Assembly: GCA_963812135.1 (NCBI GenBank)
Contig: CAWETU010000001.1
Location: 160,001-224,000, forward strand
DNA: 64,000 bases
Origin: Vulcanimicrobiota bacterium
Lineage (GTDB): Bacteria; Vulcanimicrobiota; Vulcanimicrobiia; Eremiobacterales; Eremiobacteraceae
Reading direction: 5' to 3'
A model generated the notes under the pieces. That model was given only the letters and a program-made list of their open reading frames with translations, ran no database searches and had not been told where the DNA came from. The position numbers and the translations under genes are program-made. Of this stretch, positions 39,620 through 45,887 are shown piece after piece; position 1 is the first letter of the stretch; each line of letters starts with the position of its first letter.

Positions 39620-40360
39620 TTAGCGGCCGAATCGACGCTGGCGGCGTTGGAATTCGGCGACCGCCATTCCGAAGTGATCGCGCGAGAAGTCCGGCCAGCA
39701 CACGTCGGTGACGTAGAGCTCCGTATACGCGCATTGGTAGAGCAAGAAGTTCGAGAGGCGGTACTCGCCGCCGGGCCGGATGAGCAGGTCGGGGTCCGGC
39801 ATTCCCTTAGTATAAAGGTAGGCGCCCAGCGTCTGCTCGTCGATGGTATCCGCGTCCAGCACGCCGCTGCGGACGTCGCCTGCGAGCGCGTGCACGGCAT
39901 CGCGCAGCTCGGTACGCGCACTATAGTTGACTGCGATGTTGAGCACGGTGCCGTCGTTCGCGGCTGTCTTCTCCATCAGGTTCTCGAGCGCGCGGCGCGG
40001 CCGCTCCGGCAACGCCTCATACTTGCCGATCACCTGTACCCGCACGTTGTCGCGACGCAGCCCTTCGAGCTCTTGATACGCGAACGCGCAGCACAGGTCG
40101 AATAAGACCGAGATCTCGGTCCATGGCCGCGACCAGTTCTCTTCCGAAAAGCCGTAGACGGTGAGCATGCCGACGCCGTAGTCGCGGCAGGCGCGCACCG
40201 TTTCCCGCAGCGTGGCGATGCCGCGCCGATAGCCTTCGGCGACGGGCAGGTTGTGCTCGCGCGCCCAGCGCCGGTTGCCGTCCATGATGATGGCGATATG
40301 CGCGGGGATCGGCGCATCGGCGAGTTCGATCAGTGTTGGTTTGGGTTTGCTCGAGATCAT
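39620..40360 (-). CDS. uppS: Cis-prenyltransferase (undecaprenyl diphosphate synthase)
   Basis: HIAIIMDGNRRWA, FS.ENW.RP, PDLLIR.GGE.RLSNFLL.Q, RRFG. Confidence 0.95.
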   Translation of the reverse strand: MISSKPKPTLIELADAPIPAHIAIIMDGNRRWAREHNLPVAEGYRRGIATLRETVRACRDYGVGMLTVYGFSEENWSRPWTEISVLFDLCCAFAYQELEGLRRDNVRVQVIGKYEALPERPRRALENLMEKTAANDGTVLNIAVNYSARTELRDAVHALAGDVRSGVLDADTIDEQTLGAYLYTKGMPDPDLLIRPGGEYRLSNFLLYQCAYTELYVTDVCWPDFSRDHFGMAVAEFQRRQRRFGR

Positions 40361-40402
40361 CGTGAGGACCTGACGTGCCTTTCGGTTGAGCGTGAGCGCA
40401 TT

Positions 40403-40825
40403 TTAGGTGGTCGCCAGCCGCGCTGCGGAGCGGCCTTCCGCGTTCGCGTGGCTTTGCGCTTTGGCGTGCACTTCGCGGACGACGGACTCGAGTTCGTCGA
40501 TGTACGAGAGAAAACGCGTGCGGCCGGCGTTGGTGATGCGGCAGATCGTGGTCGGGCGGCCATGGCCGCTCTCTTTGGTGATGGTGACCACGCCCATGTC
40601 GGCGAGCGCCGTCAGGTGCCGGCTCAGGTTGCCGTCGGTGAGACCGCACGCGTCCTGAAGATCGGTGAAGCTCAAACCTTCGGGGTGCGCCACCAGACAC
40701 GTGCACACCGCGAGCCTGCCGCGCTCGTGGAAGATGCGTTGCAGTCCGGCATAGGCATACGGCGCCTCGCGCGTGCCGGTACGCACCGGTTTCTTGGCGC
40801 TCTTGCGAGCGTTTGTTGAGTTCAT
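40403..40825 (-). CDS. Winged-helix transcriptional regulator (HTH_34/ArsR-MarR-like)
   Basis: FHE..RL, F..L....LTDGNLSRHL..L, RP.T....T..GR..F..Y. Confidence 0.9.
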   Translation of the reverse strand: MNSTNARKSAKKPVRTGTREAPYAYAGLQRIFHERGRLAVCTCLVAHPEGLSFTDLQDACGLTDGNLSRHLTALADMGVVTITKESGHGRPTTICRITNAGRTRFLSYIDELESVVREVHAKAQSHANAEGRSAARLATT

Positions 40826-41457
40826 GAGGAAGTCTCCGAGAGAGCGCCGCTCTGTTCCACGCCCTCAAGCGCGATGAGCCAAGCGATCCAGAATTGTCCG
40901 ATAGCGAAGCCGAGAGCCATCACCCACCACGCCAGCGCGGGCCATTGATTGGGCATGAGCAGCAACGCGGCGCCGACGAGTCCGAACATCGCCGAGACCG
41001 GCAACACTCCTTTGGGCAGATGCGTGCGCGAGGCGAAGAGGCCAAGACCGTAACATGAGAACCAGATGCCGGGCAGCATCGCGGGCACGCCTTGCAGGTA
41101 CACCGCAAGACTCAGCACCGCGCCCAGAGCAAGCGCAGGCAGAATGCTCAAGCTGACTGTCTTCGATTGATACCGCGCCTGGCGCCCGTTGTTACGCAAG
41201 TACCAGCCGAGCAGGTTTCCATAGTAGACGGCGAGCGCGGCAGCGAGGCAGCAGAGCCAGATGGCGACATATGCCCGCACGTCCGATGTCGAGCTCGGGT
41301 GCGGCACGATCCGCGATTGCACCAGTCCGCCCGCGAGCGCGATGCCGCCGCTCAGCGCGGCGACGCGGCTCGAATAGCCGCGGAAACGCTGCACGCTTGC
41401 TAGGCGGTCCCGGACCTCGGTAAGATCCGCTAAGGCGCGCTCGACCTCGACGTTCAT
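40822..41457 (-). CDS. Multi-TM membrane protein co-transcribed with the regulator
   Basis: About 6 TM segments; 'AL.DL..VR' N-terminus; stop overlaps the regulator start. Confidence 0.8.
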   Translation of the reverse strand: MNVEVERALADLTEVRDRLASVQRFRGYSSRVAALSGGIALAGGLVQSRIVPHPSSTSDVRAYVAIWLCCLAAALAVYYGNLLGWYLRNNGRQARYQSKTVSLSILPALALGAVLSLAVYLQGVPAMLPGIWFSCYGLGLFASRTHLPKGVLPVSAMFGLVGAALLLMPNQWPALAWWVMALGFAIGQFWIAWLIALEGVEQSGALSETSS

Positions 41458-43899: not shown

Positions 43900-43949
43900 T
43901 TGCGGGAGCTTGTTTGCCCCACCTATAATGAAATGTGAGCAGCGTCACG
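43900..43949 (+). promoter_or_regulatory. Sigma70-like promoter with downstream CRP/FNR-like box
   Basis: TTGCGG-N18-TATAAT (43900-43929), then TGTGA-N6-TCACG (43934-43949). Confidence 0.5.
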
Positions 43950-44181
43950 TCTAAACGCTGTAACAAACGATATCAATTGTTAGTCGCGGTCACTCTTGCG
44001 AAACTGTTTGGCAGAACATATCCAAGACGCGATTTGAATGGTATCGTCGGAACACTTGGGGGGCTGATTCCACATCTTGAGCTTTAGAGAGTCGTAGAAA
44101 ATGCGACCGCACCGCCTGGCAGAGGCGGTGCGATCTAAGGCGTTGTGGCGTCCTCTCCGAGTTCGCAGCTGGAGGCTAACC

Positions 44182-44358
44182 ATGCACGAGCTAGGTGGAT
44201 TCCCTCACGCCTTTTCTTTACACATCGGCTTCTATCTGAGCCAACTCGCTGGTTGGGCACATGAGCTTGAGACGTTGATCACAGCAGGGCCAGCGCACAC
44301 TGCTGAGACTCTCATTACAGCCAACGTGCACACCGCCGAAACGCTGATCACGCAGTAG
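44182..44358 (+). CDS. 58-aa putative signalling/precursor peptide with three H-x-x-ETLIT repeats
   Basis: SD GGAGG 6 nt before ATG; MHELGGFPHAFSLHIGFYLSQLAGWAHELETLITAGPAHTAETLITANVHTAETLITQ; repeats differ at synonymous sites. Confidence 0.8.
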   Translation: MHELGGFPHAFSLHIGFYLSQLAGWAHELETLITAGPAHTAETLITANVHTAETLITQ

Positions 44359-44373
44359 CGACATCGGATTAGC

Positions 44374-45696
44374 CTACGCGATCTCGCGGCACAGCAAGTC
44401 GACAAGAGCTGGGTCGTATTGGACCCCGGCGCGTGCCGCGATGGTGCTTAGAGCTTCTTGTTTGCCAAGAGCCCTAGCGTTGTTATGTCCAGTCAGAAGT
44501 TGTAGGTAGTCGCGGGCGATCGCGATTATGCGCGAAGGCGCGGGGATGCGTGAACCCCGCATTCCATGCGGGTACCCACTGCCGTCGAACGCCTCGCACT
44601 GGTGCTCAACCGCGTAAGAAACATCCTCAGGAATAATCTTGGTAGCCTTGCGTAGGACCTGTGCTCCTAGCATAGGATAACGCAGGGCTTCGCTTTGCTG
44701 GGCCGGCGTTAGATTGACGCCTCCACGCACTTCGGGTCCTAGCTTGCATTTGCCGATCTCGTGGAACTCCGCTGCCCACCCAAGGCTCTCCAATTCAGTT
44801 TTGGACATCTGTATTTTCCGACCGATTTGCATGGCAAGATAGCGTACGTCGCCTGCAAATTGTGCGTCTTCGGGACTCATGAGACCGACGAATTCGCGAA
44901 TCATCTCGTGGAACTGGTTCGCCACGAACTCACGCTCGTCACGGGCTTCAACTGCTTGAATAATACGCTCGAACATTCTCGTATGGGCTACGACGTAGTA
45001 AAAGACGATGGCGCCAAGAATCCCGCCGAACGTGTACATTCCGGCTAAGAGATACGCCCATAGCGCTGCAACGAATCCGGCTCTCCAGTACCGCACAAAC
45101 GAAGCAGGCTGCCCGAGAATCGCGAATCCGGTGATCACGAGCCCGTTGTTTACAGTCTGCCAGACCATCCCAATGCCGACGATCCCGACGAACACCAGGA
45201 TAGTGGAAAGAAAATGAGGCGCGTGAGGAATGATTGCCGACACCGCGGAGTAGCTGTAGATCATCGCGTAGATCGCGAGCACTGTGATCCCAAGTTGCCC
45301 GGCCAATGCGTTCACAGCCGCTCCAAGCGGACGGCCTGCCTCCCTCAATCGGACGTGAACCGCACTGAGGCCTATGATCCCTAATGGTAGAGCCCACCAG
45401 CCGATGGTAGCCGCAGCGGCCGCCAGAATCGCAGCGACGGGAGCGTGGACCGCCCGGAAGCTCTCTTGCGGGCGTTCATTTAGCGCGAGAAAAACAGCGA
45501 CGACGGCAACAGTAAAGAGCGTCATTGGCGAAAAGAAATCGAAGTGCGGCGGAGCTACCTTAAGCAGCACCGCGCCAGCCCCTAACAACGCCCAGTAATA
45601 GGCTGCTTTGACTCCCTGGCGCCACGCGACTACGTCTCGTGTTTGAACGCCAGCTGTGCCGATCCGATCGAGTTGCGCCTGCCCTGCCATGGCCAT
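44374..45696 (-). CDS. Multi-TM membrane protein with degenerate HD-GYP domain
   Basis: About 7-8 TM segments, then FHEIGK, HQCEAFDGSGYP, IP..SRIIAIA, G.QYDP. Start uncertain (45690/45696/45750). Confidence 0.85.
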   Translation of the reverse strand: MAMAGQAQLDRIGTAGVQTRDVVAWRQGVKAAYYWALLGAGAVLLKVAPPHFDFFSPMTLFTVAVVAVFLALNERPQESFRAVHAPVAAILAAAAATIGWWALPLGIIGLSAVHVRLREAGRPLGAAVNALAGQLGITVLAIYAMIYSYSAVSAIIPHAPHFLSTILVFVGIVGIGMVWQTVNNGLVITGFAILGQPASFVRYWRAGFVAALWAYLLAGMYTFGGILGAIVFYYVVAHTRMFERIIQAVEARDEREFVANQFHEMIREFVGLMSPEDAQFAGDVRYLAMQIGRKIQMSKTELESLGWAAEFHEIGKCKLGPEVRGGVNLTPAQQSEALRYPMLGAQVLRKATKIIPEDVSYAVEHQCEAFDGSGYPHGMRGSRIPAPSRIIAIARDYLQLLTGHNNARALGKQEALSTIAARAGVQYDPALVDLLCREIA

Positions 45697-45796
45697 GACG
45701 CTCACCAGAACCTTTCGTCGGTACGCTACGCCCGGATAACGAACGGTCACACGAACGTTAAATGGGCTCGCGACCCTGTGTATAGTTTATCGAACA

Positions 45797-45854
45797 TGTG
45801 ACCCGCGTCCCCGCATGATTGTGACGCGGCTAACACAGTATGACGCAAGTCACG
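45797..45854. promoter_or_regulatory. Tandem CRP/FNR-like boxes upstream of the HD-GYP gene
   Basis: TGTGA-N6-TAACA (45820-45835), TATGA-N6-TCACG (45839-45854) and a weaker TGTGA-N6-TCCCC (45797-45812). Confidence 0.45.
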
Positions 45855-45887
45855 CACATATGTTCGACGAACGGACTTTGTGTATAA

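Follow-up and report, generated by a model that had tools for sequence, protein, structure and literature searches.

In a 64,000-nucleotide stretch of a Vulcanimicrobiota genome (contig CAWETU010000001.1, positions 160,001 to 224,000; referred to here as the window), a gene for a 58-residue peptide converges with a gene for a membrane protein ending in an HD-GYP domain. Are these two genes a signal and its receptor, as was proposed in the original prediction from the letters of the window, or do they merely lie side by side? In this work, the locus was compared with its relatives, and profile searches and structure prediction were applied to both products. Judged from these sequence comparisons, the pair is a real, family-wide and undescribed peptide-receptor cassette of soil bacteria not yet in culture, and the comparisons show that precursor and receptor genes are inherited, lost and exchanged together. 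Because the two genes always occur together and are swapped as a matched set, they probably form an undescribed cell-to-cell signalling system. The proposed pairing has gained support from adjacency, purifying selection and joint change; processing, export and binding of the peptide and any output through cyclic di-GMP (c-di-GMP) are steps that we infer.

Linkage and joint exchange of the two genes

As had been noted, the two open reading frames (ORFs) converge with their stops 15 nt apart, and both are real; the flanking genes read as ilvE and a serine hydrolase gene matched Pfam Aminotran_4 and class A beta-lactamase-like proteins, respectively. The comparison covered 25 complete genome loci, namely the window and 24 relatives in which the 3' end of the receptor gene and the downstream DNA are present; two of them (L008 and L019) belong to genomes with an unpublished mark, and none of the conclusions depends on these two alone. 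In all 25 loci, ilvE adjoins the pair and a convergent ORF of 35-58 aa with a ribosome-binding site faces the receptor gene, while the gene order around the pair is kept over ~18 kb across the family. Among 28 metagenome loci, 10 of which are near-duplicates of genome loci, the peptide gene was found in 26; one of the other two contigs ends within the receptor gene, and the other, L168, is considered below. Thus, homologous receptors do have the adjacent small ORF on which the proposed pairing depended. Genome G002 has a second ilvE-peptide-receptor locus with its own peptide ORF, located on a 2.9-kb contig (G002:C32, L127); it is of the genus g3 type and possibly mis-binned.

The receptor profile matched 26 of the 32 family genomes, including 16 of the 18 near-complete ones, and the membrane domain alone matched 16 of 17 family genomes and none of 233 other genomes of the phylum. 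When the profile was compared with 1.84 billion representatives, about ten strong full-length or near-full-length members stood among the matches listed, followed by generic HD-GYP proteins. A search of genome contigs for the receptor mostly brought up generic HD-GYP genes, and the named close relatives are labelled Eremiobacteraeota or Vulcanimicrobiota. The peptide profile gave 26 matches in 151 genomes of the class, every one beside a receptor gene, and none in 119 genomes of other families; the positive matches are circular, the negative ones are not. Six family genomes had no receptor match: three of them were also without ilvE, in one the contig ends at ilvE, and G030 is only 55% complete. 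In G011 (97% complete), the peptide and receptor genes are both absent, while ilvE and the beta-lactamase-like gene are kept with other genes between them; the pair has thus been lost jointly. The intervening segment (L207:2525-3347) contains two near-duplicate ORFs of 126-144 aa and a glutathione-transferase-like gene.

Exchange of the pair as a block is visible in closely related loci. L016 and L155 share 93-99% identity in ilvE, in the leader RNA and in the gene downstream of the pair, versus only 49-81% across the cassette. Their identity breaks at about codon 9 of the peptide gene and returns at about codon 18 of the receptor gene, and the peptide cores (described below) are DTVGWF and DTAVWG. 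A similar dip is seen in L150/L157, whereas the same-core pairs L020/L021 and L016/L023 are uniform in identity; in L014/L015 identity dips only in the intergenic DNA after ilvE. In the convergent layout, the variable core and the receptor form one block between the conserved gene starts. Among 23 pairs with ilvE identity of at least 85%, drawn from 28 loci with ilvE, helices 1-6 of the receptor are 80-96% identical in the 6 same-core pairs versus 41-61% in the 17 different-core pairs. Divergence is highest in outer loop 5 and helix 6 (0.29 and 0.43), while helices 7-8 stay at 0.82-0.84. A small ORF co-varying with the membrane domain had been named as a check of the pairing; core and receptor do change together, although the correlation test alone, given below, was not significant.

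The predicted precursor and its probable receptor

According to its sequence features, the 58-aa ORF is a precursor with an amphipathic leader and a core starting with Asp or Glu. ETLIT is present three times in it, in copies that differ at synonymous positions, and, among 100,000 shuffles, only 387 contain any 5-mer as often as twice. The dN/dS ratio is 0.31 over 18 disjoint pairs, with pN below pS in all 18; such purifying selection answers the concern, raised with the original prediction, that the peptide might not be translated. The five peptides that were looked up are all listed by gene callers, unnamed or as hypothetical proteins. Across 38 precursors, the leader is 25-32 residues long, amphipathic and His-rich, with Lys and Arg absent from 35 of them; its hydrophobic moment peaks at 100 degrees (z > 2 in 31 leaders), and hydrophobicity is fairly high in many of them, with means of up to 0.7.

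A short core beginning with Asp or Glu could be assigned in all 38 precursors, mostly three residues after a His. Three copies are found in 6/6 members of the window's genus, two in L017 and one in the rest, so that the three repeats reported for the window hold, as a feature specific to its genus, most other precursors having one core. In the close variant P0216, D replaces E in the last copy. Since Asp/Glu is the residue common to the family, the released unit more likely starts there (ETLIT...) than at the His that opens the originally proposed unit, HTAETLITA. Neither Pfam nor NCBIfam contained a family matching the peptide, and its Atlas score was only 0.77. Precursors of the double-glycine type carry Gly-Gly before the cleavage site and are served by a C39 transporter; none of the 38 has Gly-Gly at the core boundary. 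Genome G000 holds five M50 protease genes. Two candidates were discarded: the 424-aa members of one peptide's cluster are unrelated proteins rather than fusions, and the beta-lactamase-like neighbour was rejected as a processing enzyme because its gene occurs in 5/5 tested genomes without the receptor.

In the model of the receptor (pLDDT 84; membrane part 82), about eight membrane segments are followed by a long linker helix and then by an HD-GYP fold, in agreement with the 7-8 segments and HD-GYP domain read earlier from the translation. On profile evidence, the membrane domain is a remote relative of MASE9, not a member of the Pfam family. Alignment by hhalign to an independent MASE9 profile (25 rows, grown from 4 Pfam-labelled seeds) gave P 93% and E 2.6e-7 over 194 columns, versus at most 7% for six controls, and the Atlas feature score to MASE9 clusters was 0.91; Pfam MASE9 (PF20972) matched 0/32 proteins at E up to 10 and 0/32 genomes, and no other Pfam family matched the membrane part. 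The ligand of MASE9 is described as unknown and was proposed to bind within the membrane (10.1101/2021.11.05.467447, accessible part). The predicted fold is that of the ECF S-components, which occupy ranks 1-15 of the structural matches (Z 13.2-8.2, versus 4.9 at rank 50). The best of them has Z 13.2, rmsd 3.4 and 181 aligned residues, figures that come from a predicted model, a Z of ~13 being borderline for helical bundles; Foldseek gave no match at E < 0.001. In the accessible text of PMC11109136, this fold serves receptors and has its ligand site near the outer face. A complex prediction for receptor residues 18-275 with the full precursor scored 0.01 (mark 0.32) and is counted neither way. 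Frameshifted receptors in few-contig genomes (L006, L023 and L025) are probably due to sequencing indels.

Pfam HD_5 is found in 32/32 receptors (E 1.7e-23 in the window), the fold matches 4mcw, 4r8z and 9rbz, and the Tyr of GYP is kept in 26 of the 32. The "pseudo" character first ascribed to this domain was confirmed. Six of the seven metal-ligand positions (H, HD, H, HH and D; positions taken from alignments) are changed in the window receptor, five of these in nearly all 32 rows. The first H is replaced by F in 32 rows, HD by HE in 30 and the next H by Y or F in 32; in HH, the second H is C, S, G or R in 32/32 and the first is Q in 18, while D is R in 29 and H in 3. The guanine-binding motif RxxK, one of the HD-GYP motifs given in the accessible part of 10.1101/2021.11.05.467447, is lost as well, with Y or H in place of R in 32/32 and K not kept. 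Because the replacement residues are themselves conserved (Phe in 32/32, Tyr in 30, Arg in 29), the alignment points to a retained non-catalytic role of the domain. No DUF5317 partner was found in G000, and no active partner gene lies alongside the receptor.

Several other genes of related architecture were observed. A second membrane-bound HD-GYP gene of G000 (G000:C1:1050786-1052129, minus strand) is partly degenerate and has a weak MASE9 score (E 0.02); no precursor-like small ORF was found near it. In L069 and L055, distant MASE9-HD-GYP genes are directly preceded by ORFs of 31 aa (L069, upstream of 707) and 19 aa (L055, upstream of 1969), each with a ribosome-binding site, which suggests that peptides are common partners of MASE9. 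Genes of ~550 aa directly before MASE9-HD-GYP genes (L059:2378-4028 and L076:336-1998) have, by eye, the look of a subtilisin-type protease with a repetitive tail.

Promoter box and leader RNA

The CRP-like boxes described ahead of each gene are of the CRP type and present before both. Upstream DNA is sufficient in 36 of 38 loci, and all 36 carry a CRP-type palindrome at a distance of 205-306 nt from the ATG of the peptide gene, with at least 8/10 matches in every one and at least 9/10 in 35. In 33 of these loci, a TATAAT-like hexamer is found 3-7 nt ahead of the box; because the box sits just past this hexamer, its position suggests repression. On the receptor side, the same three boxes occur in 5/5 genus loci examined, and 16 of 20 loci have at least one box with 8 or more matches; of the other four loci, two have only a short stretch of DNA upstream.

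The leader RNA of the peptide gene is predicted to be folded (z -4.5 in the window; median z -3.5; z < -2 in 27/36 loci). A hairpin tipped with UGGCAG is present in 29/36 loci, and many members have a hairpin over the ribosome-binding site. Two-sided changes were found in 7 of 18 named pairs of an 18-row non-g1 alignment, a number reached by 0/500 shuffles, the structure having been derived from that same alignment. A search of 12 loci against Rfam gave three chance-level matches, none of them in the leader. The UGGCAG hairpin has nine sites genome-wide, four outside crude gene calls, versus 0-2 for five control loops; further sites outside crude gene calls are G000:C1:968966, C1:578334 and C5:136743.

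With the two strands counted separately, 32 genomes contain 158 occurrences of the strict box motif, versus 5 of the reversed control. Forty other sites were picked by hand, and 47 of the 67 flanking ORFs were scanned; the categories overlap and orthologues repeat. Eleven of these sites lie ahead of type IV pilus genes (7 identified by Pfam, 4 by eye), and 2 fall within prepilin peptidase genes. CheR-like genes follow 4 of the sites, GGDEF genes follow 3, and genes for TonB- or carboxypeptidase-regulatory-domain proteins follow 7. The best sites of G000 are found ahead of a pilin-like operon. A further site lies before the major pilins of a type IV pilus cluster (G000:C1:1491820-1501107) comprising, with names assigned by eye, pilT, pilC, a sigma factor, two pilins, a prepilin peptidase and pilMNO-like genes. 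A CRP-family gene (G000:C1:1497104-1497805) lies inside this cluster; its product may bind the box, and the receptor may feed back on it.

Alternative explanations and related systems

The reading that we favour, with somewhat better than even confidence, is a peptide pheromone that differs from strain to strain, paired with a receptor that signals non-catalytically. In the proposed scheme, a CRP-family regulator over the transcription start and the folded leader would control precursor synthesis, and the precursor would reach the inner membrane by means of its amphipathic leader. There, cleavage by a general intramembrane protease (probably of the M50/Eep type) and further trimming would free a short peptide beginning with Asp/Glu, up to three per precursor in the window's genus. 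This peptide would bind an outward-facing S-component-like pocket formed by helices 5-6 and the intervening loop, and the conserved helices 7-8 and linker helix would relay the change to the catalytically dead HD-GYP domain. The latter may act via a binding partner, either a protein or a nucleotide, and the likely downstream process would be the pilus/c-di-GMP programme with the common promoter box.

Several observations weigh against this reading. The partial rank correlation of core similarity with the membrane domain, given the HD domain and ilvE, was not significant over all pairs of the 28 loci (-0.01) or over 112 within-clade pairs (0.21, p 0.24), and partial Mantel tests were not significant. 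In ilvE, too, same-core pairs are closer (92-98%) than most pairs with different cores; this confounding is broken by just three of the latter (ilvE 91-99%), and the pairs share members. Neighbouring genes recombine jointly regardless of function, and some similar cores go with distant receptors (L150/L154, 48%). In L168, the receptor stops after ~300 residues and is followed by unrelated DNA, in which no peptide gene was found. The core boundaries were set by eye, and the leader is without the basic N-terminus of a Sec signal. No C39 transporter was matched in G000 (98% complete), no conserved protease or exporter was found near the locus among relatives, and nothing was found in the sequences that would tie the dead HD-GYP domain directly to c-di-GMP.

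The other explanations differ in what they make of the same observations. An accessory subunit, in the form of a small membrane protein that stays uncleaved, tunes the receptor of its own cell by binding to it and sends no signal to other cells, would suit the hydrophobic leaders, the lack of a linked processing or export gene and the small ORFs upstream of the distant genes in L055 and L069; binding partners co-vary too. We nevertheless consider it unlikely, as tandem cores with variable spacers (6/6 genus loci and L017) suit a released, dose-dependent product, and the two genes are transcribed separately. Moreover, the exchange of alleles among strains that are otherwise almost the same suggests that differing specificities are selected for, and a subunit private to its cell has little need of these. 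A role of the peptide as a toxin or bacteriocin acting on membranes (type I toxin-like or PSM-like), with the membrane protein as immunity protein or sensor, appears improbable. The amphipathic His/Gly-rich helix, the polymorphic cassette and the long folded leader, in which a hairpin covers the ribosome-binding site in many members as it does in type I toxin mRNAs, are in keeping with such a role. However, what is conserved is the helix, and the part that varies with the receptor is the short tail; the partner retains a conserved signalling domain, and neither a bacteriocin exporter (in the locus neighbourhood, or of the C39 type in G000) nor a toxin family (in Pfam or NCBIfam) was found.

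That the genes are mere neighbours, the receptor sensing a small molecule such as a vitamin or metal and the peptide having another role, would agree with the non-significant correlation and with the vitamins and metals bound by solved S-components, as far as the accessible literature on them goes. One-to-one occurrence, joint loss and a promoter box common to both genes make this very improbable, and, were the sensed metabolite a fixed one, a 50% difference in the sensor would not be expected between strains with flanks 99% alike. The pair had further been described as inserted on an AT-richer island. The hand counts behind this (23/60 and 34/60 GC) are exact, and the 2-kb stretch, with 55.9% GC versus 64.1% in the genome, is within the lowest 0.8% of 5,567 genome windows. 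The low GC is, however, a trait of the family, since the receptor gene is poorer in GC than its surroundings in 19/20 relatives (by 5 points on average), and the site was not found empty in the relatives, as it would be for a genomic island. Because the site after ilvE is the same in every complete locus and the gene order is conserved, the pair is a fixed locus, confined to one family, and a recent acquisition of foreign DNA is scarcely credible.

Under the favoured pheromone-receptor reading, the cassette works like agr/comQXP or SHP systems, being a member of none. Pherotypes of agr/comQXPA combine a small precursor and a polytopic receptor that are exchanged as an allelic cassette, and the same features are seen here. 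Unlike agr/comQXPA, the genes are convergent, no histidine kinase, response regulator or modifying enzyme is encoded in the locus, the output is a pseudo-phosphodiesterase and the host has outer-membrane (TonB-type) genes; membership was rejected for want of the kinase and the modifying enzyme, although the cassette exchange fits. With the Rgg-SHP and Rap-Phr (RRNPP) systems, the locus shares the two-gene unit, a short hydrophobic core beginning with Asp/Glu and the layout of an adjacent small propeptide with a C-terminal signal, the core being the presumed signal. In the accessible text of PMC13361665, SHP pheromones begin with Asp/Glu and are cut by Eep, and group III SHPs are convergent with their receptor, as here; Phr precursors can contain tandem signals (PMC5199041, accessible part), as in the window's genus. 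Membership in RRNPP quorum sensing was rejected, despite the fitting layout, since the receptor is polytopic and without a TPR match, unlike the cytoplasmic TPR regulators; because it is a membrane protein, re-import of the peptide is unnecessary.

On the receptor side, the MASE9-HD-GYP proteins (T. maritima TM1467, S. venezuelae HdgA and the degenerate HdgB) likewise have an eight-segment membrane domain followed by HD-GYP (10.1101/2021.11.05.467447), and membrane-bound, degenerate HdgB is a precedent for an inactive membrane HD-GYP (PMC6205966), both according to the accessible parts of these sources. Unlike these proteins, for which the accessible text mentions no peptide, the receptor has no Pfam MASE9 match and no active partner gene alongside, and it keeps GYP and loses the metal ligands. 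The inactive regulators HnoD of S. oneidensis and ECA3548 of P. atrosepticum share degenerate HD and HHE motifs with it, and HnoD, which inhibits an active phosphodiesterase, is a precedent for a non-catalytic HD-GYP; these are soluble REC or PilZ fusions, whereas the input of the receptor is a membrane domain. Assignment to the active HD-GYP phosphodiesterases was rejected, as the fold is kept but the metal ligands and RxxK are lost in the 32-row alignment. Known ligands of 5TMR-LYT sensors and S-components are small molecules. The 5TMR-LYT sensors (BtsS, LytS type) and ECF S-components (NikM, CbiM) resemble the receptor in fold and in a site near the outer face (PMC11109136, whose accessible part mentions no MASE, HD-GYP or quorum); unlike the former, the receptor has no 5TMR-LYT Pfam match.

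It is possible, though we hold this only tentatively, that the locus represents peptide quorum sensing of a new class, in a bacterium with two membranes, with an unmodified short peptide, a receptor of S-component fold (MASE9 type), a dead HD-GYP domain, a loop on the type IV pilus CRP regulon and many dialects. If so, peptides would also be suggested as general ligands of the orphan MASE9 domain, peptide signalling with dialects would reach a soil phylum, and a vitamin-transporter fold would be a peptide receptor with a pseudo-phosphodiesterase as its output. The locus offers a candidate MASE9 ligand together with natural matched and mismatched alleles (e.g. L016 and L155); therefore, specificity is testable with synthetic 6-9-mers and heterologous receptors, with no culturing. 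The literature searched, which left most subscription journals outside, contained no paper on this phylum in which an HD-GYP receptor is connected with a neighbouring peptide, and nothing on DUF5317 or on Eremiobacter with HD-GYP.

Table 1. Features of the peptide-receptor locus (positions in the window)
Feature	Position	Strand	Basis or details
Sigma-70-type promoter of the peptide gene, predicted	43900..43929	+	TTGCGG, 18 nt, TATAAT at 43924-43929; -35 assigned by eye
CRP-type palindrome (TGTGA-N6-TCACA type), over the predicted transcription start	43934..43949		motif match
Structured 5' leader, predicted, ~250 nt	43934..44181	+	hairpin 44105-44135, tip UGGCAG (44117-44122)
Ribosome-binding site GGAGG	44171..44175	+	4-5/6 matches to AGGAGG before ATG in 25/25 loci
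Peptide ORF, 58 aa	44182..44358	+	GGAGG 7 nt before start
Predicted precursor leader, aa 1-29	44182..44268	+	amphipathic His-rich helix, no Lys/Arg
Predicted core region	44269..44358	+	ETLIT(A/Q) x3 at 44269, 44305 and 44338, each after H-x-x; stop codon ends 44358
Receptor ORF, 438-440 aa	44374..45696	-	convergent with peptide ORF
Linker helix and degenerate HD-GYP domain, aa 239-440, through stop codon	44374..44982	-	Pfam HD_5, fold matches
Receptor membrane domain, aa 23-238, ~8 segments	44983..45630	-	MASE9-related, ECF S-component fold
Likely receptor start codon (440 aa)	45694..45696	-	MAxAG start kept in relatives; alternative ATG two codons on gives 438 aa
Receptor promoter region, three weaker CRP-type boxes	45780..45854	-	45797-45812, 45820-45835, 45839-45854; 8-9/10 matches

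Genes for a membrane protein, a winged-helix regulator and a cis-prenyltransferase (window positions 39620-41457, minus strand) are kept upstream of ilvE in most relatives; no evidence was found that they belong to the peptide-receptor system. In genus g3 (L014, L015, L017 and L018), the C-terminus of the receptor extends over the peptide gene on the opposite strand.

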